A stretch of 59,352 nucleotides of DNA from a phage, in sequence record PZ564402.1. The stretch is one strand, 5' to 3'. The translations under genes and the position numbers were made by a program. Positions 2,580 through 59,352 of the stretch are shown here, piece after piece (position 1 is the stretch's first letter; every line of letters begins with the position of its first letter). The notes beneath the pieces are model-generated. The model searched no databases, had not been told where the DNA came from, and saw nothing but the letters and a program-made list of their open reading frames with translations.

Positions 2580-2823
2580 GGCGCAACGCTTAACGGCTGC
2601 ACGTATGGCGGCGGATCGGTATGCCGGGATCGCACGGGCAAAAGGTTTTAAACGTCATGCGGATGGCGTGACTTTTATCCGGGCAGATGCGGATCTAACG
2701 TGGGATGACCGGGCGCGCGCTTTCCGTGTGACGCTGTACAAAATGGACGGGGCCGCACGTCTTGCCGTTGCCACTGTACGCGCGAATGCGATGCTTAACG
2801 TGCTGTTAAAATCGTTTATCTGA
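2572..2823 (+). CDS. hypothetical protein (start at internal ATG MDKAQRL)
   Basis: 8-nt overlap with upstream gene; last gene before terminator. Confidence 0.45.
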   Translation: MDKAQRLTAARMAADRYAGIARAKGFKRHADGVTFIRADADLTWDDRARAFRVTLYKMDGAARLAVATVRANAMLNVLLKSFI

Positions 2824-2892
2824 ATCCCGGATTTTCGGGGAACGCCGCACGATCCCTTTTAACCTGTTTTGACATATTCCCCATGTATCAAA

Positions 2893-2919
2893 GGCCGCCT
2901 ATCCGGGCGGCTTTTTTAT
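2893..2919 (+). terminator. rho-independent terminator (GCCGCC stem / GGCGGC, T6 tract)
   Basis: GC stem-loop followed by TTTTTTATT directly after last gene of rightward early operon. Confidence 0.65.
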
Positions 2920-2927
2920 TGCCTTTC

Positions 2928-3126
2928 TGATATACGCGGCGTGCGTTGCGGTGCCGTGTAGCGGGCCTATGGTGTGCCGTGTGCGATGATATACGCGGCG
3001 TGCGTATGGCGGCCCGTCCTGCTTTCTTCCTTCCTGATATACACGACGTGCATCAATGCGGCCTTATGTGTGCGCTATGCCGTATGGCGGCCCGCTATGG
3101 TGCTGCATGATATACGCGGCGTGCGT
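2928..3126. repeat. four direct repeats of 19-bp TGATATACGCGGCGTGCGT (one degenerate) with nested TATGGCGGCCCG sub-repeats
   Basis: Copies at 2928, 2987, 3035 (degenerate), 3108; noncoding; about 240 bp from candidate cos. Confidence 0.7.
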
Positions 3127-3363
3127 TGGTGTGCGGCTGTATATGGCTATCTATTCCCCTTTCTATGGTATCCCCTGCTATATGGTGTGACGGGGCGTTA
3201 TTGTATGCCCTTATTTCGACCGCTACGGGGGGCAGACGGGGCGATCGTGGTGTAAGGTATGCCTACCTATTACGATCTATCTTGCGTGGCGTGGCGGGCG
3301 GCTGAGGAAGAATTACGGTCACGATTTCAAAAAGGTACTTACCCGCCCGTCGGTCAGCCCGGG

Positions 3364-3375
3364 GGTGCGCAGAGC
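3364..3375 (+). other. candidate cohesive-end site (cos) 12-mer GGTGCGCAGAGC
   Basis: Exact match to the 12-nt 5' cohesive end I recall being reported for Salmonella phage Chi; lies in a noncoding interval beside direct repeats. Confidence 0.45.
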
Positions 3376-3605
3376 CGCTTTCTCGGAAAATGGGCCGGAT
3401 CTGCCATAGCCCCGCTTTGCGAAATCAATAACTTAGCCGAAAAATCGAATTTCTCCCGTAGGGAGGCACCGAAACAGGGTGCTGCCCGGGGTGCGGGCGG
3501 AACGGCGCTTTAGCCCCTCAACCGATTGATAGTATTACGGTTATACCCGGTGGGCTGGTGCTGACCAAGTCCACGGCAGCAGGCATCAGACACAAGATAC
3601 AACTC

Positions 3606-3868
3606 GGTTACAGGAAATTCGACTTGTAACCTATCCGTAAATCCTTAATTCTACTACCTTTTATCAACTATTAGTTACAAGTTACAAGAAATAAGGGTAA
3701 ATAGGATAAGAAATAGGGATAAAACGTTGTATATTGTAGATCACATCGTCACACATTATATGTATGTATAGGGTTAGCGGCACTTGTAACCTGTACTCAA
3801 AACATGGTCAAGGCCAGTCGTGACGCGGCTTTCAGGGGTTACAAGACGATCATGCGTTTTTGTAACCT
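3606..3868. promoter_or_regulatory. AT-rich control region with multiple GGTTACAA/TTGTAACC inverted and tandem repeats (operator-like)
   Basis: Inverted pairs 3606-3631 and 3838-3868, tandem GTTACAAGTTACAAG at 3673-3690, further copy at 3784-3791; upstream of HTH gene 3925. Confidence 0.5.
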
Positions 3869-3924
3869 CAACGGTTAACAGCACGTCGAACATACGCGAC
3901 GTGTATCAAACGGGGAAACTAAAA

Positions 3925-4251
3925 ATGGCTAGTGCAGTTGAAAAGTTAAAATGCGGAACGTCAGTGGAACGGGCGTTGAACAAAAGAGCGGCTGATAAAG
4001 TGTGCGACGGGGTTAAAAAGCGTCTCAGAAATGCAATAGTCGCGGAAATCGACGACAAGGGGTACACCAATTCCGAAGTTTGCAGCATGACTTGCGTACC
4101 AAGCAGCCGGGTAAGGGAGTTGAAGGAAAAACAAGGAGACGGATTCCAGCTAGAAACGCTTTTACGCATGGCAATTACGCTTAAATTGGACATTGAAATG
4201 GTCACATTCTGGAATCACGACGTGATCAAAGCGCGCGTAAAAATATCGTGA
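3925..4251 (+). CDS. XRE/Cro-like helix-turn-helix transcriptional regulator (109 aa)
   Basis: HTH-like segment GYTNSEVCSMTCVPSSRVRELKEKQ; GGGGAA RBS; start placed at internal ATG because upstream part of ORF overlaps operator repeats. Confidence 0.55.
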   Translation: MASAVEKLKCGTSVERALNKRAADKVCDGVKKRLRNAIVAEIDDKGYTNSEVCSMTCVPSSRVRELKEKQGDGFQLETLLRMAITLKLDIEMVTFWNHDVIKARVKIS

Positions 4252-4264
4252 TTTCTACTAAAAA

Positions 4265-4293
4265 GTAAGGCCGGATTTCCCGGCCTTTTTTAT
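4265..4293. terminator. bidirectional rho-independent terminator (GGCCGG-ATTTCC-CGGCC flanked by A5 and T6)
   Basis: Perfect hairpin between convergent genes 3925-4251 (+) and 4299-6881 (-). Confidence 0.7.
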
Positions 4294-4298
4294 GTCTG

Positions 4299-6881
4299 TT
4301 AAACTTCGTCATCCCACTCGCCCGGTACAACTTTACCGACGATTTTTTCCACCTCCGCGTTATGCTTTTTCAATGTTTTCTGCGCCCATTCGGAGTTAAG
4401 TTTTCCAGACTCGTCGTACGCACCTTTGACACGCTTTCTGACGTACACGCGACCGGACTTCCCGCCGAATTTCAGTACGCCGCCCGGCTTAAATCCGATC
4501 TCCATAAGCATGTTTTTGAGGCGAGACGTTTTCGGCATTTCCACATCTTCGGTTTCAAGGAAGGCGTCTCGCAACGATGGTACGAAGATGATGTCGCGGT
4601 GGACGCCCGGCGTTGTCCCGTCACGCAGCATTGATACTACCGCACCTTCTACCCCATCGTTTGACGCGTCGGCCATGATGGAAAACGCTTCGGTGTCCTG
4701 CGGTGCATGGCCTTTGTGGTCAAAGTCCTCGCTGATCTCCCATTCGAGGAACCATTTCTTCAATGCAGGGACGTGGTTGTCGATCGCCCGGTACACGTTC
4801 TTGAAGAAGCGCGAGCGTTCCGCCTTCGACCCGTATACCCGCTCCATGTCCAGATGATTTTCGGCCTGCGTGGACACTACCAGATAACGACGCTGGTTTT
4901 CATCGAGTGGCAACGCGTTAAAGTGGTTAGTGAACATCATTTTACTACTGGTGTTCACGACAACCTTTGGCTTGCGGCCTTTCGGTTCCACCTGAAAACG
5001 GTCATTGGTGATATACTCTTTCTGCCGCTCGATGGCGCTGTAGCGGTCGCCCTTGTCGTACACCTCTTCCACGATTTTCAGGATGTCGCCTTCCGCCCAA
5101 TCACTGAAACGGCCGTTCATCACGGAGTTTGAAACGTAGCCCACGTTTTTGCGTCCTAACATGGCTGACATGAGCACGCCTAACGTCGATTTACCGGAAC
5201 CGTGCGCGCCGCGAATCAGTAACGAGTAGTTGATGCGCTTCGTCGGGTGCTGGATAATCCACGCCATCCAGTCCATAACGTATCGGCGTTCCTTGTCATT
5301 CGGGAAAAGCACGACAAAGAAGTCCTTGATGATCTCCACGGCCTTTTTATCGTACGGCGAAAGCTCGTCGGCAGGCTCCGGAATGGAATCCGGGTCGAAA
5401 GAGTTGAGCCACGTCTTCCCGGACTCGTCTATAAAGAATTCCGGGCCATTTACCCCCGGCTTCGGCTTCCACAAGGTTTCTTCCATATCACCGTGCATCG
5501 CCGGGTAGTACATGGCGTCACAAACGATAGGGATCGGCCTGACCAGCGATGCAAAAGTGATAGGTTTAATCGTTTCTTCCTCGAATTTGCACATATTTGC
5601 GTACGCGAAGTCGAAAGCGCCCTTAGAAATGTAAGAACCGGACGATTTATCGATCAAACAGTCATTTTCTTCCGAAAAAACGAATTTTTTCAGCCAAATC
5701 GGCATTTCTTTTGAGCCATAATCGAAGCCTAATTGCTCCTTTTTATCGTTCGCAGTCATCCGGTAGTTCTTGATCCGCAGGTACGCTTCGGCCGCAACTT
5801 GGACGATCGTCTTACGGGTCATGCCGAAAATCTGCTCTTTGCGGAAGGATTCGGCCCATGCGTTCCAGTCTTTCTCGTCAGTACACTCGGCAAACGCCTC
5901 GCGGTACTCGATGGCCTTCTCTTCCTGCTCGGCTTTCTCGATTTCACGAACTTCGGTGATGATCGAGCCTAAAGTTACGAGGCGGGATGCGTTGTGCGCG
6001 AAGCCCTTATCCCACTTGTATTCGAAATCACCATCGTCGAAGTTGTGCGCCTGCATGGCCCACTCGCGGGCAATGGATTTCGCTTCGTCCTGATCCCGGC
6101 AGGAGATTTGCAGCGCGGCCAGCACCTTGATGTAGTTCTCGTAATCCTCCGGATTCGGGTACTTCATGACAAGATCGCGAAGGTCTTCGTACGTGCCGTC
6201 CCATTTCCGGATACCCGCCGTTGCCGCCCAATCCTCTTCGTCCGCCGTTCCGATGGCTTCGTACCCGTTCATCGGGCGCTTGACCATCGTCCAGCCCTGC
6301 TCTTTGGCGTAACGGTCAAACTCCGCCGCGATTTCACGCGCGGTATCGAGGCTGATCTCTTCGAGGTCGAAATCGGCTGCGTTGTTCAGCGGATTCTCGT
6401 CGTCGAGCCAGTAATAATCGCGGTTGGTGTCCGGGTGGATACCGTACGCGACGAACTGCTGGCCGTCGGCGAGGATTTCAACCGCATGGCGCTGGCCGAA
6501 GTCGTCTTCCCATACGCCGGACTTCACTTTCGAGAATGGCGATTCCGTCCGGAACAGAAAGAGTTTCTTTGGTGCCCGTCCGATACGACATGGCGCGCGG
6601 CCAACATTCTCCAGCACCCAATCCGCCATATGCGCCACGGCGTCTTCATCGTAAACGTCGATGTCAACCGCCGGGGTGTATTTGGTCAGAATCCCGATGC
6701 CGTTTTTCGTGTAGCGTTCCGCCCAACGCTGGATCTGCTCCTTATCGTTAATTGTTCTTTCCCAATCCTTACCGATGGGGCGTTTACCCGCGCCCTTCTT
6801 ATCGGCGTCCGGGGCGTAGATAGGTACAACGGTGTACCCATTCCCCCAAAGCGTTTCGCCGTACTCTTGCCAGTAATTCAT
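4299..6881 (-). CDS. bifunctional primase-polymerase / SF3 (D5-like) helicase, 860 aa
   Basis: N-terminal prim-pol motifs (VDIDVYDED, YGIHPD), Walker A GAHGSGKST in C-terminal half; acidic C-terminus WDDEV. Confidence 0.8.
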   Translation of the reverse strand: MNYWQEYGETLWGNGYTVVPIYAPDADKKGAGKRPIGKDWERTINDKEQIQRWAERYTKNGIGILTKYTPAVDIDVYDEDAVAHMADWVLENVGRAPCRIGRAPKKLFLFRTESPFSKVKSGVWEDDFGQRHAVEILADGQQFVAYGIHPDTNRDYYWLDDENPLNNAADFDLEEISLDTAREIAAEFDRYAKEQGWTMVKRPMNGYEAIGTADEEDWAATAGIRKWDGTYEDLRDLVMKYPNPEDYENYIKVLAALQISCRDQDEAKSIAREWAMQAHNFDDGDFEYKWDKGFAHNASRLVTLGSIITEVREIEKAEQEEKAIEYREAFAECTDEKDWNAWAESFRKEQIFGMTRKTIVQVAAEAYLRIKNYRMTANDKKEQLGFDYGSKEMPIWLKKFVFSEENDCLIDKSSGSYISKGAFDFAYANMCKFEEETIKPITFASLVRPIPIVCDAMYYPAMHGDMEETLWKPKPGVNGPEFFIDESGKTWLNSFDPDSIPEPADELSPYDKKAVEIIKDFFVVLFPNDKERRYVMDWMAWIIQHPTKRINYSLLIRGAHGSGKSTLGVLMSAMLGRKNVGYVSNSVMNGRFSDWAEGDILKIVEEVYDKGDRYSAIERQKEYITNDRFQVEPKGRKPKVVVNTSSKMMFTNHFNALPLDENQRRYLVVSTQAENHLDMERVYGSKAERSRFFKNVYRAIDNHVPALKKWFLEWEISEDFDHKGHAPQDTEAFSIMADASNDGVEGAVVSMLRDGTTPGVHRDIIFVPSLRDAFLETEDVEMPKTSRLKNMLMEIGFKPGGVLKFGGKSGRVYVRKRVKGAYDESGKLNSEWAQKTLKKHNAEVEKIVGKVVPGEWDDEV

Positions 6882-7398: not shown

Positions 7399-7818
7399 AT
7401 GTCTGGTATCTTCGAACAACTGCTGGCTGAACAACAAAAAACTAACACCCTGCTGGAAGGCGTTCTGGCAGCATTGAAAGGCGGCGCGGTGAATACCTCC
7501 GCTGACGCTGGTAGCGAAACCACCGAAAAAACCACCACCACCACCAAAGGCGGTGCTAAGGGCGGCGCGAAAGGCGGTGCAGGTAAAACCGAAACTAAAG
7601 CGGCCAAGCCTAAGCACACCAAAGACGAAGTAGTCGCTGCTGTCGTCGCGGTTAAAGACGCGTTCGGCGCGCCGGAAGCCAAGAAAATCACCGCTCACTT
7701 CGGCCTCGCGAGAGTCGCGGAAGCGAAGGAAGAACACTTCGACGAAATCGTTGAAATGTGTGAAGCCAAACTGGCTGAAAAAGATGAAGGCGGTAACGGC
7801 GAAGAAGACGACGTTTAA
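7399..7818 (+). CDS. low-complexity Lys/Gly/Thr-rich protein with acidic C-terminus (139 aa)
   Basis: GGAG RBS; KGGAKGGAKGGAGK repeats; ends EEDDV; followed by hairpin terminator. Confidence 0.6.
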   Translation: MSGIFEQLLAEQQKTNTLLEGVLAALKGGAVNTSADAGSETTEKTTTTTKGGAKGGAKGGAGKTETKAAKPKHTKDEVVAAVVAVKDAFGAPEAKKITAHFGLARVAEAKEEHFDEIVEMCEAKLAEKDEGGNGEEDDV

Positions 7819-7880: not shown

Positions 7881-8210
7881 GTGACCAGCATTACTTTCAC
7901 CAACGTTTCTACTACAGGCGGCGCAGTTCTCGCGCGCACTTGGGCGGAGTTTCGTTTTCAAATCGGTGATCGCGATGTGCTGTTCAGAGTTACTTCCCCT
8001 GTTTCGAAACACGAAGCGCCGCTGCTCGTAACCCACGCATCATCCGGTCTTCGAGTATGCGACGTCTGGTGGGACGACGTGGCGAAGACTCGCTTTAACG
8101 CAGGCCGCAATAATTACAGCGGGGCAGGCGCTAGGGCATTAGTAGCGACGATTGAGCGAGTCGGCCAACACCGATTCCTCAACGCGATAAAGGCGTATCC
8201 GAATGAGTAG
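7881..8210 (+). CDS. hypothetical protein (GTG start, 109 aa)
   Basis: GGAGAGGA RBS 5 nt upstream of GTG. Confidence 0.5.
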   Translation: MTSITFTNVSTTGGAVLARTWAEFRFQIGDRDVLFRVTSPVSKHEAPLLVTHASSGLRVCDVWWDDVAKTRFNAGRNNYSGAGARALVATIERVGQHRFLNAIKAYPNE

Positions 8211-9543
8211 TAAGTCACTGTTAGTCCGCATCATGCGGGAATTCGGCGGTGGCGGCCACTCAATCTTCGCGCCTTCTGCGTCAGCGCGGTGGATAGCATG
8301 TTCCGGGAGCCTGATAGCCGGGCTTTTCGAGCATGACGAAACCATCTACGAGGCGGCGGAAGGCACGGTGGCCCACGGAATCGCCGAACAATGGCTGCGA
8401 ACGGATGTCCGGCCAACCCATTTAATCGGCACTGTCGAGACGATCACGGAAGGCGATGTCAGTCATGACATCCCGATCACGCGGTCAATGCTCGACGCAG
8501 TTCAGGAATACGTGGACTGGTGCCGATTTGAAGAGGGTGAAATGTTCACGGAAATTCGGGTATGGTTCACAGACCTGATGCCGCGAGCAAACCCGGATGA
8601 ACCTGACGAAGAACCGGAAGAGTTTGTCGCTCAGGGCGGAACGGCGGATAACATCATCATCCGTGACCGCACCTTGATCGTGACCGACCTGAAATACGGT
8701 ACTGGTGTTCAGGTTTTCGCGGAAGGGAACCCGCAGGCGCTACTTTACGCGTACGGTGCGTACCGCGCTTTTGCGGATGAATACGAGTTTGACCGTATCA
8801 TCATCCGGATTGCGCAGCCGCGACTCGACCACTTCGATACGTGGGAAATCACGCTTGACGAGTTGTTGGAGTTTGCGGAGTACGCCCGGGAGCGGATTGC
8901 AGCGGCATGGAGCCTTACCGCGCCGCGCCGCGCATCCCTGAAAGGGTGTCGCTTTTGCCGGGCAGCACATAACTGCGCAGCGATAGCGTACATGATGGAA
9001 TGTGCAGTGGGTGGGGATGTGGAATTCCTTGAAGCCGAATTCGGGGAGGAAGAAATGTCAGTATTGCGTGATGCGCTGGCGCAGGAGTATAAATTCCGGC
9101 GTGCGCAGTTCGGAAACCTGACAACCGAGCAGATGGCTAAGATCCTGCCATACCGCAAGGTGGTCGAAAACTGGTTCTCGCGCCTTGACTTCGAACTGGA
9201 ACGCCGCGCAATGAACGGTGAGAAGGTACCGGGTCAAAAGCTGGTTGAGTCGCGGACAAACCGCAAATTCGCCAACGAGAAAGATGCGATCGCGTTGTTC
9301 AAGTTCCTCGACATCGAAGAGGACAAGTACATCGAGCGCAAACTGCGTACTCCGGCGCAGATGGAAGAAGTGCTTAGGGATGAATTGGGCGTGTCCCGGG
9401 CTGGCGCGCCAAACATTATCGCGGGGATCGTTTACAAGCCGGAAGGCAAACCGACACTGGCACCGCTGACCGATAAGCGGCCACCACTGGACGGCAAGTA
9501 TTCCGGGGCGTGGGACGATGAAGATGATGACGACGAAGTGTAA
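8203..9543 (+). CDS. PD-(D/E)XK (RecB/Cas4-like) nuclease, 446 aa
   Basis: Motifs LIVTDLKYG (D/ExK) and QALLYAYG (QxxxY), Cys cluster CRFCRAAHNC; acidic C-terminus WDDEDDDDEV. Confidence 0.65.
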   Translation: MSSKSLLVRIMREFGGGGHSIFAPSASARWIACSGSLIAGLFEHDETIYEAAEGTVAHGIAEQWLRTDVRPTHLIGTVETITEGDVSHDIPITRSMLDAVQEYVDWCRFEEGEMFTEIRVWFTDLMPRANPDEPDEEPEEFVAQGGTADNIIIRDRTLIVTDLKYGTGVQVFAEGNPQALLYAYGAYRAFADEYEFDRIIIRIAQPRLDHFDTWEITLDELLEFAEYARERIAAAWSLTAPRRASLKGCRFCRAAHNCAAIAYMMECAVGGDVEFLEAEFGEEEMSVLRDALAQEYKFRRAQFGNLTTEQMAKILPYRKVVENWFSRLDFELERRAMNGEKVPGQKLVESRTNRKFANEKDAIALFKFLDIEEDKYIERKLRTPAQMEEVLRDELGVSRAGAPNIIAGIVYKPEGKPTLAPLTDKRPPLDGKYSGAWDDEDDDDEV

Positions 9544-9597: not shown

Positions 9598-10194
9598 ATG
9601 GCCGAGAAATTAGTCCCTGCGAAGAAAGTCAAGAATGGCGTGCTGTATAAATCTGGTCACATCAAGATTTCTAACGTACGTGCTTCTTACCCGCACCTCG
9701 ATAAGCCGTACGGCGGCGAAGACGGCGGCGAGCCGAAATACTCGCTGACACTTTTGATGCCGAAAGAAAGCCACGGCGAGATCGAGAAAATCATCCGCGA
9801 GCAGATCGAAGTCACCAAGAAGAACCACAAGACAGGCGCGCTTAAAGTGGCTCCGTCCATGTTGTTCATCAAAGACGGCGACACCGATTTCCCGGACAAA
9901 CCGGAATGCGAAGGGATGTGGGTTATCTCAGCGCGCGAAAGCAAACGCCCGGATGTGTATAACATCGAGCGCGAAGAGTTGACTACTTCTTCCGAAATTC
10001 TGGAAGAGATCTACGGTGGTTGTTGGGTGTCTGTCGTCATCCGTCCGTGGTCGCAGGAAAACAAATTCGGCAAACGCGTCAACGCCAACCTGATTTCCGT
10101 TCTCAAACGCAAAGACGACGAGCCGTTCGGTGAAGGTCGCGTTGACACGTCTGATGCGTGGGATGAAGACGAAGATTGGGAAGACGAAGTGTAA
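9598..10194 (+). CDS. ssDNA-binding protein, T7 gp2.5-like (198 aa)
   Basis: N-terminal ASYPHLDKPYGG...YSLTLLMP resembles gp2.5 YAYIAKPDYG...YKVDLTIP; acidic C-terminal tail DAWDEDEDWEDEV. Confidence 0.6.
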   Translation: MAEKLVPAKKVKNGVLYKSGHIKISNVRASYPHLDKPYGGEDGGEPKYSLTLLMPKESHGEIEKIIREQIEVTKKNHKTGALKVAPSMLFIKDGDTDFPDKPECEGMWVISARESKRPDVYNIEREELTTSSEILEEIYGGCWVSVVIRPWSQENKFGKRVNANLISVLKRKDDEPFGEGRVDTSDAWDEDEDWEDEV

Positions 10195-12301: not shown

Positions 12302-12589
12302 ATGGCCGAGCCGATAATCAGAGAATCGAAGGTTGAAAAGCGCTGCTGCGAATACGCGCAGGGCCGTGGGTGGTGGGTATCAAAATTCACCTCCCCCGGT
12401 AAAAAAGCCGTCCCGGATCGTGTGCTGATCCGTGGCGGTATTGTGCTTTTTATCGAATTCAAACGCCCCGGCGAAGAACCAACGGCGCAGCAGTATCACC
12501 GCCATAAGGAAATGCGCAAGGCAGGGGCAAACGTGACATGGGTGGACAATTTTGCAGACTTTAAAAACTACATTATCGCCTTTGAGTAG
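12302..12589 (+). CDS. VRR-NUC domain nuclease
   Basis: Small PD-(D/E)XK-type core FIEFKRPGEEPTAQQ; starts 2 nt after polymerase stop. Confidence 0.6.
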   Translation: MAEPIIRESKVEKRCCEYAQGRGWWVSKFTSPGKKAVPDRVLIRGGIVLFIEFKRPGEEPTAQQYHRHKEMRKAGANVTWVDNFADFKNYIIAFE

Positions 12590-14111
12590 AGCGCTCGCGT
12601 ATTGCCTGCGGACGGTTAAACTGAACCGCAGCGACATGCACGACTATCAGGACGAAGGCGTCCAGTTCATCAAAGACCATCCGTACTGCGGCATGTTCGT
12701 AGACCTCGGCTTGGGTAAGACTGTCATGACCGGGACGGCCATGCTAGACCTGATCGCGGACGGCGAAATCAACAAAGTCCTCGTCGTCGCGCCGAAGCGA
12801 GTGGCCCGTACCGGGTGGCCGACGGAATTCGACGAGTGGGGCCATCTGTGCTTCTACAAGATGTCGATTATCGCCGGAAACGCCAAAGAGCGCGCAGCGG
12901 CCGCGAGTAAGGACTGCCATTTTTACACGATCAGCGTCGATAACATCGCGTGGCTGTGCGAGCACTTCAAGACGAAATGGCCGTTCGACGCCGTGGTGCT
13001 GGACGAGTCGAGCATGTTCAAATCCCACACCTCGCAGCGCTTCAAACTGCTGCGCCGGGTGCGGAAGTACATCAAACGGATCGTCGAGTTGACGGCCACG
13101 CCTGCGGCCGAAGGGTACATGGGTATCTTCTCGCAAATTTACCTGCTGGACGAAGGCGAGCGCTTTGGCTCCACCATCGGCGGTTATCAGGACAACTACT
13201 TCACGCAGAACCGCTACAACTTCAAATGGAAACTTCGCCCCGGTGCGGAAGACGAGATTATTCGGAAGATTTCTGATATATGTTTAGTCATGAAAGCGGA
13301 AGACTACCTTGACATGCACGAACCGAATTTCGTTCCTGTCCCGGTCGAGTTAGACGGGGAGACGGCCGAGCGGTACCGCATGATGGAGGAAGAGAGCCTC
13401 GTCGAGATTATGCCGGACGATTTCGATGAACATCTGGATGACCCAATCGTGATCGAAGCGGAGCAGGCCGCGTCTTTGCAGTCGAAGCTATTGCAGATGT
13501 GCTCAGGCTTCATCTACGACACGAAAATCGTTGGCATAACGCAAGACGACAAGGTCATTAAGCAGAAGGACACGTACAGGCTGCACGACCTGAAATTCGA
13601 TGCACTGGAAGAACTGCTGGAAACCACGCTGGCCGATAAAAACGTGCTGATCGCCTATCACTTCAAGCCGACCCTCGAACGACTGAAAGAGCGGTTTAAA
13701 GATCTGGTGGTCATGGATGATGACGGTAAGTGCATCAAGAAGTGGAACGCCGGAAAGATTCGACTGCTGGCCGCGCACCCTCAGTCAGCGGGACACGGTT
13801 TAAACCTCCAGCATGGCGGCCACGTCATCGTCTACATCGACAATCCGTGGTCACTCGAACGCTTCCTGCAATTCAATGGCCGATTGCACCGTCAGGGGCA
13901 GAAGTACCCGGTTACGATCTACCAGTTCAAAGCCATGCTGCGAACACCGAACGGGCTTCTGGCCGAGACGGCGGACGACGTAGTCATACAGGCGCTGGTC
14001 GAAAAGGAAGACGTGCAGGACGCGTTCTTCGAACTGCTCGAACGTATCAAAGGGCGCATCAAACGCCGCAAGAAATCGAAAAATAAAGGGGTATGGGATG
14101 ACGAAGAGTAA
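12552..14111 (+). CDS. SNF2/SF2 family helicase (start uncertain: TTG 12552 or ATG 12636)
   Basis: Q-motif HDYQDEGV, Walker A GLGKT, DExx-like VVLDES, helicase C motifs; C-terminus VWDDEE. Confidence 0.75.
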   Translation: MQTLKTTLSPLSRALAYCLRTVKLNRSDMHDYQDEGVQFIKDHPYCGMFVDLGLGKTVMTGTAMLDLIADGEINKVLVVAPKRVARTGWPTEFDEWGHLCFYKMSIIAGNAKERAAAASKDCHFYTISVDNIAWLCEHFKTKWPFDAVVLDESSMFKSHTSQRFKLLRRVRKYIKRIVELTATPAAEGYMGIFSQIYLLDEGERFGSTIGGYQDNYFTQNRYNFKWKLRPGAEDEIIRKISDICLVMKAEDYLDMHEPNFVPVPVELDGETAERYRMMEEESLVEIMPDDFDEHLDDPIVIEAEQAASLQSKLLQMCSGFIYDTKIVGITQDDKVIKQKDTYRLHDLKFDALEELLETTLADKNVLIAYHFKPTLERLKERFKDLVVMDDDGKCIKKWNAGKIRLLAAHPQSAGHGLNLQHGGHVIVYIDNPWSLERFLQFNGRLHRQGQKYPVTIYQFKAMLRTPNGLLAETADDVVIQALVEKEDVQDAFFELLERIKGRIKRRKKSKNKGVWDDEE

Positions 14112-14667
14112 TGCGCCACTGGCAACCCGGAATCGCCGCTCTAACGCGCCGGACGCCGACACAGAAGCGATGATCTTTCAGGGCTGCAACATCACGCAAC
14201 TGGCAAAACTGTTCCGCATGGAGCGCCGGGACATCACGCCGAAAATCATGGATGTCCCGCCTATCGGCGAGCGTGGCGGGTACCCGATCTACGCGGTTCA
14301 CGAAGTGGCCCCGTACCTCGTTAAGCCGCTGTACGATGTCGAGACGTACCTGCGCCGCATGAATTTCAAGGATCTGCCGAAGGAGTTGTCGAAAGAGTTT
14401 TGGGCCGGGCAGCGTGCAAAGCAGGACTTCGACATCAAAGCTGGCAACCTGTGGGAAACAGAGAAGGTGATCGAGCACTTCGGCGAGGCGGTGAAGGTAC
14501 TGCGCATGTCGATGCTGCTCATTCCCGACACGCTGGCGCGTCAGGCCGGACTCAGCGAGCCGCAACGTCAGGTCATCACGTCATCCATTGACGCCATGCT
14601 GAACGACCTGTCGAGCGCGCTGATCGAGAAGTTCAACGGCGACGAGGTGGACGACGATGAAGTTTAA
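14098..14667 (+). CDS. terminase small subunit, Nu1-like winged-HTH (189 aa)
   Basis: NITQLAKLFRMERRDITPKIMDVPPIGERGGYPIYAVHEV resembles lambda Nu1 N-terminal DNA-binding domain; directly upstream of and overlapping TerL; C-terminus DDDEV. Confidence 0.55.
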   Translation: MTKSNAPLATRNRRSNAPDADTEAMIFQGCNITQLAKLFRMERRDITPKIMDVPPIGERGGYPIYAVHEVAPYLVKPLYDVETYLRRMNFKDLPKELSKEFWAGQRAKQDFDIKAGNLWETEKVIEHFGEAVKVLRMSMLLIPDTLARQAGLSEPQRQVITSSIDAMLNDLSSALIEKFNGDEVDDDEV

Positions 14668-54151: not shown

Positions 54152-55225
54152 TTAAACCTCGTCGTCGTCTTCGTCGTTCAGCGTTCCGGTGTACTCAACA
54201 ACCTGCCCGGCCTCGTCCAGCACGCTGATCACCGCACGCAGGGACTTATCGAGTTGGAACAGGTTCGCCATCATGGTCAGGAACTGGCCGCCATCGGTGC
54301 CGTAACGTTCGAGCGTGGCGTCGTAGTTCGCATCGACGTCGGCCTCGCCGATATGGATACCGGACAGGATGGCTTTGTCGGACAGGCGGAAGTACACGGT
54401 GTCGATGCCCGGGCATTGCGTATCGACTTCGAGATCCAGTGCGCGGACAGTCCAGTGGCGGGACAGCAGGTCAACCACCGCCTCGTCTTTGAAGATGTCC
54501 GTGTCCTTCATCTTAACGTCGTCACCATCGTCGTGTTTCAGGTGGATAAACGCATCGCCCTTGATGCCGTCCTGCTGGCCGAGAACCGCGCGCTGCATTA
54601 ACTGGCGCAGCTCATACTCGCTCGGCAGGAGGTGTTCGACGGGCCATGTGCCGAGCGCGGTACGGATCAGCGCGCTGCACTCTTCTGCCGTCTTCGCGCT
54701 CGACGTGAACACGTACACGAACGGGGCGGACAGGATGACGTTGACGCGGGACGGGCGGATAGGCGCGTATTTCAGCATTTCCGCTTCCACGTCGTCCTTC
54801 ATCTGCGCCCAATCCTTGCGGTTCGGCTCCCAACCCTCGATCTCTTTCTCCCGCAACGCGGCCATGCGCTTCACGACTTCATTTCGTACGCTGACGCCGG
54901 GCAACACACGTTCGCGCTTTTCGATCTGGAAGACGATGGCGTTTGTCCCGGGGATGGCGAGCGCAAACTTGCTGTCAACCTCTTCGCCGTACGCTGCAAA
55001 GCCCATTGTCTTGTAAGACGCCTCCGGCGGATCTGACACTTCATGCTTTTCGAGTGCATCGCTTAACGCTCCTTTAGCGAAAGACGTCACCGCCTCTTCG
55101 TCAACGTTCGGCAGATTCAGGATCAGGCGGTGCAGCGGCTTGACCTTCTCGTTACCGTCGTTGGCCGCGTCGTACAGCGCGCCGAGGTGCAAGATAATGG
55201 CTTTCTCATAACCCTTGATTTTCAT
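54152..55225 (-). CDS. RdgC-like recombination-associated protein with acidic C-terminal tail
   Basis: Segments VLPGVSVRNEVVKRMAALREKE and AEECSALIRTALGTWPVEHLLP resemble E. coli RdgC as I recall it; ends NDEDDDEV. Confidence 0.5.
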   Translation of the reverse strand: MKIKGYEKAIILHLGALYDAANDGNEKVKPLHRLILNLPNVDEEAVTSFAKGALSDALEKHEVSDPPEASYKTMGFAAYGEEVDSKFALAIPGTNAIVFQIEKRERVLPGVSVRNEVVKRMAALREKEIEGWEPNRKDWAQMKDDVEAEMLKYAPIRPSRVNVILSAPFVYVFTSSAKTAEECSALIRTALGTWPVEHLLPSEYELRQLMQRAVLGQQDGIKGDAFIHLKHDDGDDVKMKDTDIFKDEAVVDLLSRHWTVRALDLEVDTQCPGIDTVYFRLSDKAILSGIHIGEADVDANYDATLERYGTDGGQFLTMMANLFQLDKSLRAVISVLDEAGQVVEYTGTLNDEDDDEV

Positions 55226-56367: not shown

Positions 56368-56739
56368 TTAAACTTCGTCGTCGTCCGCGACGTCGGTGGC
56401 CGTACAGGTTACGACGGCCTGAATGAACATGCGGCCAGACGGGTAAGTCACCAGCGCGGACTCCATGCTGAACCGTTGGCCGTGGTGCTTCATGGCATTC
56501 CGGATGGAGGAATTTAGGCTGGCCCGCATCTTCGCTTTGAGGGCATTGGCCTCGTCCTGTACCTGCGAAAGCGTACGGTCAAGCGGGAGTTCTTGGGACA
56601 GGGTGTACACGCCACCGACTTCCAGCGCAATGAGGTTCCCCACGACGCTGTACACGCGCACGCGTGACGGCAGTTCAACATCCGGCTCGGTCGTCATCAT
56701 TGCGCCAGTCAGTTCGGCCGGGCTTAGTTCTTTGCTCAT
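56368..56739 (-). CDS. hypothetical early protein with acidic C-terminus (123 aa)
   Basis: GGAG RBS; first gene after promoter 56782-56810; ends DVADDDEV. Confidence 0.5.
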   Translation of the reverse strand: MSKELSPAELTGAMMTTEPDVELPSRVRVYSVVGNLIALEVGGVYTLSQELPLDRTLSQVQDEANALKAKMRASLNSSIRNAMKHHGQRFSMESALVTYPSGRMFIQAVVTCTATDVADDDEV

Positions 56740-59167: not shown

Positions 59168-59352
59168 ATGGGTCATATGTATGGCGTTATCTTGTCAAAT
59201 GGTACGCATTGCGACACGTCAACCACGGAAAAGGGCGCGAAAAATTACGCCACGCGCCACGGTTACAAGGAAGTAAGCCGCCGCCTGAATTGCGGCTATA
59301 GCGTCGAAATCGTAGCACATCGCGCCGGGTCGAAATGGATCGCCGGGCCTGC
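59168..59352 (+). CDS. hypothetical protein, truncated by window end (would terminate at position 18 if the sequence is circular)
   Basis: ATG at 59168 with GGGGGA RBS; frame stays open to the window end and continues in frame into positions 1-18 (TAA). Confidence 0.35.
   Translation, partial: MGHMYGVILSNGTHCDTSTTEKGAKNYATRHGYKEVSRRLNCGYSVEIVAHRAGSKWIAGP

Follow-up and report, generated by a model that had tools for sequence, protein, structure and literature searches.

The window analysed here, the whole 59,352-nt stretch of record PZ564402.1, contains the complete genome of a Chi-like siphovirus (Chivirus, Casjensviridae) in circularly permuted form, and its segment 3000-5000 shows 97-99% identity to Escherichia phage ECO111 5-P, Serratia phage Smarc6 and Salmonella phage YSD1. 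Position 3364 of the window is where deposited genomes of the Chi-like group begin. The 12-base cohesive end of phage Chi, determined as 5'-GGTGCGCAGAGC (PMC4342425), is found at 3364-3375, a site that the Smarc6 record labels 'cos overhang', so that what the first-pass annotation had called a candidate cos site is genuine. An array of short repeated boxes therefore lies about 240-550 bp inside the left genome end; counted from the nick site, the boxes extend over ~225-505 bp, beyond a highly conserved block of ~220 bp. The array is followed by gene 1 (3925-4251, plus strand), the XRE-like gene of the first-pass annotation, whose product matches HTH_37 (Pfam), and by the gp2 gene (4299-6881, minus strand), which encodes a primase-helicase of 860 residues that is proposed below to be a replication initiator. 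The two genes are convergent, so that the boxes lie 3' of the gp2 gene. Between them stands a GC-rich hairpin with T-runs on both strands (4267-4287), a probable bidirectional terminator.

The DNA on either side of cos carries further conserved elements. To the right of cosN (3376-3587), there is hardly any variation from Chi to Enc34 over the first ~100 bp, and conservation is still good over the following ~120 bp, which makes this segment a better candidate for terminase recognition (cosB-like) than the boxes. The right genome end carries a direct repeat, TG(A/G)TATACGCGGCGTGCGT, in four copies (2927-3126; at 2927, 2986, 3034 and 3107) that lie 252-432 bp to the left of cosN, distances shared by every Chivirus genome checked. 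These repeats are kept also in BSPM4, which is devoid of gene 1, and are independent of the class of the boxes. A diverged fifth copy, ATACGCGACGTGTAT (related element at 3890-3906), is located just upstream of the gene-1 ribosome-binding site. A packaging role of the repeats would fit the near-invariant terminase small subunit (TerS).

The box array and its AT-rich DNA

The array is built from a box of 8-9 bp with the consensus a[G/A]GTTACAA[A/G], which is present seven times in the window and nine times in relatives. Its layout is a tandem, an inverted pair, a second tandem, ~100 bp of AT-rich DNA, a single box and a second inverted pair. The leftmost tandem is degenerate (AGACACAA at 3588-3595 and AGATACAA at 3595-3602, plus strand) and corresponds in position, in the alignment, to the intact tandem GGTTACAAGTTACAG of Chi. 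The first inverted pair consists of a one-mismatch copy, GGTTACAG (S1, 3606-3613, plus strand), whose position is kept in all aligned Chi-like phages, and of an exact GGTTACAA (S2, 3624-3631, minus strand), separated by a 10-bp spacer. The second tandem is formed by two overlapping one-mismatch copies AGTTACAA on the plus strand (S3, 3673-3680; S4, 3680-3687), which together read AGTTACAAGTTACAA (3673-3687) with a 7-bp period. Beyond the AT-rich DNA, three exact copies of GGTTACAA complete the array: the single box S5 (3784-3791, minus strand) and the two arms of the second inverted pair, S6 (3837-3844, plus strand) and S7 (3860-3867, minus strand), with a 15-bp spacer (3845-3859). Measured centre to centre, the two inverted pairs span 18 and 23 bp, respectively. 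What the first-pass annotation had described is borne out by this anatomy. It had counted at least six half-sites, and there are seven once the one-mismatch copies are included; the tandem arrangement is that of the overlapping boxes at 3673-3680 and 3680-3687; the array does end before the gene at 3925, its last box stopping 57 bp short of the ATG. Of the two spacers given there, 10 and 16 bp, the former stands and the latter measures 15 bp.

The clustering of the boxes departs strongly from chance. Exact GGTTACAA/TTGTAACC occurs five times in the window against an expectation of 1.12, and at least five occurrences were reached in none of 100 shuffles; the seven boxes fall within 262 bp, although only 0.19 would be expected in 300 bp (Poisson P=1.4e-9), and the largest of the box clusters across 100 Markov simulations contained four. 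The fifth exact GGTTACAA (59261-59268) is isolated inside a coding region, far from the array, and is consistent with a chance occurrence.

The AT-rich stretch between the two box groups (3632-3783, unstranded) is a candidate DNA-unwinding element, with a GC content of 25-30% over 3640-3740. As had been noted from the sequence, the region is AT-rich: the 120-bp windows of lowest GC content in the whole 59 kb fall in 3621-3770 (28% compared with 56% for the genome), directly adjoining the repeats. The predicted DNA fold of 3590-3880 shows no hairpins beyond those formed by the two inverted pairs (z=-2.4), and no large stem-loop like that of pRN1. GC skew along the window follows the coding strand and gives no origin signal, an Rfam search returned nothing over noise, and no second cis element of the crr type was seen.

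Conservation of the array and the gene-1 slot

An alignment from cos to gene 1 of the window, Chi, FSL SP-030, BSPM4 and Enc34 shows that the distances of the boxes from cos are kept across the five phages: ~225/232 for the first tandem, 243/261 for the first inverted pair, 310/317 for the second tandem, ~421 for the single box and ~474/497 for the second inverted pair. The positions of the array are conserved in more than 20 relatives, and are held from Chi to Enc34 and KPN N137 despite diverged flanks. Among four phages that share both the GGTTACAA boxes of the window (class T, see below) and its gene-1 type, 1 of 55 box columns varies compared with 76 of 268 non-box columns (Fisher p=2.6e-6). 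The array is also present where gene 1 is absent, namely in BSPM4, Enc34, KPN N137 and the contigs of P0014, P0016, P0017 and P0018; in BSPM4, Enc34 and the Klebsiella phage KPN N137, the primase gene ends 60-110 bp past the last box. The near invariance of the box columns, together with the independence of the array from gene 1, indicates that the boxes are under selection, but not as gene-1 operators.

That the boxes are autoregulated operators, to which the gene-1 product (XRE/HTH_37) would bind as a dimer and repress its own promoter, was the reading of the first-pass annotation. It agrees with the location of the boxes upstream of an HTH gene and with the presence of inverted pairs, the last of them 57-88 bp from the ATG. 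A motif search across relatives, however, finds the array at the same cos distances in phages that have no gene 1, and identical GGTTACAA boxes accompany gene-1 proteins of no more than 18-20% mutual identity in the window, Chi and BP12C. Nor do gene-1 allele and box class go together, and the unequal spacing of the two inverted pairs and the additional tandem copies also count against this reading. A consensus scan of 2700-4400 detected no sigma-70-like promoter and manual inspection of it no convincing -35/-10 pair; the gene-1 alleles of Chi and SP-030 have palindromes of their own, ATAAC-N6-GTTAT, accompanied by an upstream TATAAT. The comparative data thus largely refute the operator reading, which we regard as highly improbable. 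Another candidate gene-1 operator, the inverted repeat CACGTCG-N8-CGACGTG (3882-3903), is not kept in Seifer, SP-088 and SeF6b, which carry the same gene-1 type.

The slot between the array and the primase stop codon is hypervariable, in the window (3925-4251) as at seven further loci, and holds unrelated small HTH_37 proteins (11-34% identical between types), proteins of 177-197 residues, or nothing. It behaves like a site of exchangeable cargo; gene 1 would then be variable cargo lodged between an origin and its initiator gene rather than the reader of the boxes. For annotation, the case is a warning against assigning boxes to an HTH gene solely because they precede it.

Covariation of the boxes with the predicted gp2 wing

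According to Pfam, gp2 is composed of a Prim-Pol domain, PriCT-2, an SF3 helicase (DUF5906) and a C-terminal domain. Its sole significant sequence match in the protein data bank is the helicase domain of NrS-1. An AlphaFold2 model of residues 680-860, calculated from a 63-sequence alignment (mean pLDDT 88.5), displays the topology of a winged helix, with helix H1 (744-754), strand S1 (764-766), helices H2 (767-776) and H3 (785-794), and a β-hairpin wing (797-815) made of β2 (797-805), a turn (806-807) and β3 (808-815). The C-terminal domain hence models as a winged helix (residues 744-815, encoded by 4437-4652, minus strand). A Foldseek comparison of this domain with the protein data bank gave no match below E=0.1, and the origin-binding domain of P4 alpha (PDB 1KA8) shows neither a sequence match nor a significant fold match to it. 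Primase, SF3 helicase and C-terminal winged helix, the last as predicted, are the parts expected of an initiator and are combined here in one protein. A protein search with the C-terminal domain alone returned two proteins only, and the full-length sequence was used as the query instead.

The primase is one of eight proteins of the window that end in an acidic tail, ...D(D/E)EV-COOH, often after W, in the variants ..WDDEV, ..DDDDEV, ..WEDEV, ..DDDEV, ..EEDDV and ..WDDEE. The proteins are the primase, gp4, the exonuclease, a Gp2.5-like SSB, a SNF2 helicase, the terminase small subunit, an RdgC-like protein and a 123-residue ORF (4299-6881, 54152-55225 and 56368-56739 on the minus strand; 7399-7818, 8203-9543, 9598-10194, 12552-14111 and 14098-14667 on the plus strand). 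Similar ends (..ENDEV, ..GENEV) occur in several gene-1 alleles of relatives. Acidic tails are known from T7 gp2.5 and gp4, and by analogy the tail looks like a shared docking motif for one partner.

All copies of the box switch in concert by lineage, between GGTTACAA, GGTAACA[A/G], [T/A]ATTACAA and AGTWACAG. The window and Chi have GGTTACAA (class T) and SP-030 has GGTAACAG (class A); BSPM4 and Enc34 have (T/A)ATTACAA (class AT, TATTACAA in BSPM4), TA or AA replacing GG in every box of BSPM4. AGT(T/A)ACAG boxes are found in P0007 and P0008, both with S804 in gp2. The host does not set the class, since three classes occur among Salmonella phages. Outside these classes, the P0025 contig, whose primase is 54-59% identical and has a different wing (VGLFSFEG), lacks TTACAA-type boxes and carries a repeated GCGGTAAGGA-like motif at ~377-661 nt of the reverse-complemented stretch downstream of its primase gene, possibly a fifth origin dialect. 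In the more distant Xylella phage Sano, whose primase shares 28% identity, the corresponding place is occupied by about ten TACTGTCACAAG repeats. No clean box family was seen in E21 (Lavrentievavirus) and BUCT551, E21 having just a few TGTACAAA-type repeats, and a scan of IMG/VR with the primase alignment yielded six loci, every one a known isolate.

Differences between the gp2 proteins of different box classes are concentrated at the C terminus. Between SP-030 and the window, 51 of 58 residue differences lie in the last 160 residues (99% identity over residues 1-700, 69% over 701-860), and between BSPM4 and the window 14 of 25 lie in the last 130; in Seifer, which belongs to the class of the window, they are evenly spread along the protein. 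Likewise, the N-terminal parts of P0017/P0024 and N137/P0018 gp2 are 93-97% identical while their winged helices are 54-59% identical. Across nine phages, only two of the 860 columns are partitioned by class, V802L (class A) and K804C (class AT), and both lie in the motif KPGG-V-L-K-FGG; the corresponding codons 802-804 (V-L-K, 4470-4478, minus strand) encode part of wing strand β2, on which the model places both residues. In a scan of all 860 columns over 17-18 phages, normalized mutual information (MI) reached 1.0 solely for residue 802 (V/L) with base 4 of the box (T/A) and for residue 804 (K/C/S) with bases 1-2; the next-best values were 0.44 and 0.54, respectively, and came mostly from within the same wing. 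The same scan applied to the neighbouring gp3, gp5, exonuclease and SSB (877 columns) gave maxima of 0.32 and 0.52.

The covariation is not only exclusive to these two residues but also predictive. Wing motifs were read from the 120 listed of ~770 gp2 homologues, and predictions were written down before any contig was viewed, under the rule that V..K goes with GGTTACAA, L..K with GGTAACA and V..C with (T/A)ATTACAA. The box class was predicted correctly in all ten unseen contigs, from lineages 53-96% identical: GGTTACAA for the V..K wings of P0016 and Yersinia phage Rostov 43, GGTAACA(A/G) for the L..K wings of P0013, P0014, P0015, P0017, P0024 and ZCSE8, and TATTACAA for the V..C wings of P0018 and P0023. 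Exceptions to the rule are P0007 (V802, S804), whose boxes are mixed T/A at base 4, while P0008 (L802, S804) has A there, and P0025, which has no such boxes. C804 recurs in three winged-helix backgrounds that are mutually 47-71% identical and L802 in four, and for several winged-helix domains the nearest domain belongs to another class. The winged helix of BSPM4 is 95% identical to that of the window, and K804C is its sole class-specific change after removal of those shared with class T.

Other candidate readers did not survive these comparisons. The small regulator gp3, whose gene directly precedes that of the primase, shows 100% identity between the window (class T), SP-030 (class A) and BSPM4 (class AT), and TerS is 100% identical in SP-030 and BSPM4; their identity across box classes excludes both as readers. 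The gene-1 HTH protein is absent or unrelated in phages that keep the boxes. Within gp2, H761 appeared promising as a specificity residue with five phages and failed with SAP012 and P0016. Taken together, the comparisons make the gp2 winged helix likely to be the reader of the boxes. The pairing of Lys with GG, and of a Val/Leu exchange with a T/A swap, would make chemical sense; two residues on the same face of a strand would be spaced about two base pairs apart.

Similar arrays were encountered in small circular, non-mobilizable plasmids retrieved by tblastn. A PriCT-2/Toprim/DUF5906 protein is encoded by pW47-1 of Proteus (8,955 bp) and by pECQ4552_IHU03 of E. coli, which is a dimer of a similar unit; they carry ten (C)GGTTACAA(C) boxes ~300 bp downstream of the gene for this protein, past a terminator and around AT-rich DNA; the box orientations, +++ -- ++, AT-rich, -, + -, mirror the phage array. 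The pW47-1-type protein has 23% identity to window gp2 over residues 496-834 only, and in pW47-1 it aligns, weakly (E=0.014), a Pro rather than a Val with position 802. pRHB04-C06_4 (E. coli) contains GGTTACAC six to seven times directly downstream of its homologue, and no obvious array was seen in small plasmids of Moellerella and Klebsiella. The three plasmids thus share with the phage GGTTACA(A/C) boxes, their order of orientations, AT-rich DNA and an upstream DUF5906 gene, and their C-terminal wings (..GPIKVHGKAAR.. in pW47-1; ..VKLAGKAVR..) resemble that of the phage; they differ from it in the Toprim and PriCT-2 primase part and in being 9-kb circles with few phage-like genes. The GGTTACA array thus travels with the helicase-winged-helix gene, in elements that have neither Chi cos nor terminase. 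Phage-type genes are present in this group: pW47-1 has one for a minor-tail/tape-measure domain protein, and pW18-2-d has genes for an integrase and a major capsid protein. These two and a third member (L038) may be phage satellites or mini phage-plasmids and not ordinary plasmids.

The origin reading, its rivals and known systems

The first-pass annotation had raised in passing a possible function in replication for the AT-rich DNA beside cos, and this is the suggestion favoured by the array, its conservation and its covariation with gp2. Seven boxes and two degenerate ones, in direct and inverted orientation, are gathered in 3588-3867 beside the most AT-rich DNA of the genome, and the array is probably an iteron-type replication origin of the P4 alpha/ori type, read by the winged helix of gp2. 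Because the primase gene and cos are always adjacent in the Chi-like family, position alone cannot separate a role in replication from one related to cos.

A cos-related role would have the boxes act as cosB-like sites for TerS or another cos-accessory protein, as in lambda, whose cosB likewise has repeated sites and a bend. The boxes do lie beside cosN, beginning 230-240 bp from it at a distance fixed in all relatives. However, TerS, identical in SP-030 and BSPM4 and two residues away from that of the window, is faced with GGTAACAG in the one and TATTACAA in the other; the near-invariant ~100 bp adjoining cosN even in Enc34 could themselves serve as cosB; and the same GGTTACAA array stands beside a helicase-winged-helix gene in the 9-kb plasmids, where there is no Chi-type cos or TerS. 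A cosB function of the boxes is accordingly quite improbable. The match with residues 802 and 804 might also have arisen by hitch-hiking in a shared recombination block, some other phage or host protein being the reader. Less than 1 kb separates the boxes from the 3' end of the primase gene, a physical linkage by which the covariation could partly reflect co-inheritance; SP-030 and P0017/24 have clearly gained a whole C-terminal domain by recombination, and the genome-wide comparison covered three full genomes. Yet only the dispensable gene 1 lies between the boxes and the segment for the primase C-terminal domain, and classes that are not linked to host (three among Salmonella phages) were predicted correctly ten times out of ten over lineages of 53-96% identity. 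The sharing of C804 and of L802 by unrelated winged-helix backgrounds, the near-identical winged helix of BSPM4, which differs essentially by K804C, and the controls on neighbouring proteins argue against co-inheritance without abolishing it, and a different reader appears improbable.

If gp2 is the reader, the winged helix may still bind the boxes for a purpose other than initiation, such as controlling gene 1 or the transcription that comes in from cos, autoregulating or ending the convergent primase transcript, or tethering the injected genome end. Covariation identifies a reader and not the consequence of reading, the boxes overlap the sole possible promoter region of gene 1, and initiator proteins frequently double as repressors. 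On the other hand, the array flanks the stretch of the genome richest in AT and is kept where gene 1 is absent, the same arrangement recurs in small plasmids whose sole replication-type gene seen is the homologue, and P4 and pRN1 have their origins at such sites. Taken jointly, these non-origin purposes are unlikely.

Under the origin reading, gp2 would bind the iterons through its winged-helix domain once the cos ends have joined. Wing strand β2 would read the boxes, with bases 1-2 recognized by residue 804 (Lys for GG) and base 4 by residue 802 (Val for T and Leu for A), and the inverted pairs would nucleate helicase oligomers flanking the AT-rich stretch, which would melt there. The Prim-Pol domain would then prime synthesis, and the phage DNA polymerase I would take over. 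We infer physical binding, melting and initiation at the array from sequence comparison. A bolder proposal, which we advance as tentative, is that the wing strand reads the iteron with a near one-residue-to-base code that has changed repeatedly, in some cases through one substitution alone (K804C in BSPM4), with the 7-9 iterons following in concert, so that one family of lytic phages would use at least four mutually exclusive origin dialects, or replication-specificity groups. Were this two-residue code true, K804C should shift preference to TATTACAA and V802L to GGTAACAA, and a swap of the two residues should reprogram origin choice; this could be used to engineer orthogonal phage replicons, and could help to explain exclusion or competition between co-infecting relatives. 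The GGTTACAA dialect is common to the satellite-like plasmids, and cross-talk with the phage initiator could therefore occur.

A literature search found no paper on the origin or iterons of Chi-like phages (Casjensviridae), and the putative origin appears previously undescribed. Chi-like phages are widely isolated as biocontrol candidates against Salmonella, E. coli and Klebsiella, and the analysis offers for them a precise, testable origin (3588-3867) and a named candidate reader, the gp2 winged helix. The natural, matched variants of protein and site would furthermore constitute a specificity map for a wing-mediated DNA contact.

The closest functional parallel is the alpha protein of satellite phage P4, for which two published accounts describe binding to origin repeats through a C-terminal winged helix (PMC4234260, PMC2777425). 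P4 alpha and gp2 both join a primase, an SF3 helicase and a C-terminal winged-helix domain, origin-binding in P4 and putatively so here, in one polypeptide, and both systems have octamer-sized repeats in both orientations with AT-rich DNA. They differ in the primase, which is of the DnaG/Toprim type in P4 and an archaeo-eukaryotic Prim-Pol with PriCT-2 here, and in the replicon, a satellite phage there and a 59-kb lytic-type siphovirus with its own polymerase here. The P4 iteron, TGTTCACC, is also different from GGTTACAA.

The order of domains in gp2, Prim-Pol, helical/PriCT-2, SF3 helicase and winged helix, is that of ORF904 of the Sulfolobus plasmid pRN1 and of Bordetella phage BIP-1, although the sequence match of gp2 to ORF904 is borderline (E=0.19, Prim-Pol part only). 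The pRN1 origin lies 3' of the ORF904 gene itself (PMC4234260, PMC2777425), as the array does with respect to gp2, and in each case a small DNA-binding gene precedes the replication gene in the operon, orf56 there and gp3 here (PMC4234260). The origins of pRN1 and BIP-1, however, have been described as a stem-loop of ~100 nt in which no iterons were found, in contrast to the iteron array and small local hairpins seen here. The findings would link the Chi-like family to Prim-Pol/SF3/winged-helix initiators, a group in which the motif recognized by the best-studied member, pRN1, was not identified by its authors.

Base reading by a wing strand is unusual, RFX being the precedent. RFX (PDB 1DP7) is a eukaryotic transcription factor with a generic similarity of fold to the modelled domain, and homology beyond the fold is unsupported. 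Matched variation of initiator and site has better-known counterparts: the O proteins of lambda, phi80 and P22 fall into matched types of DNA-binding domain and iteron that make their origins type-specific. Variants of PLE RepA and its ori are among the subjects discussed in PMC8263062. The Chi-like phages would resemble both systems in possessing matched variants of initiator domain and iteron among relatives, and differ from them in that the initiator belongs to another protein family, the putative origin lies outside the initiator gene, and the switch appears to reside in two residues of the wing.
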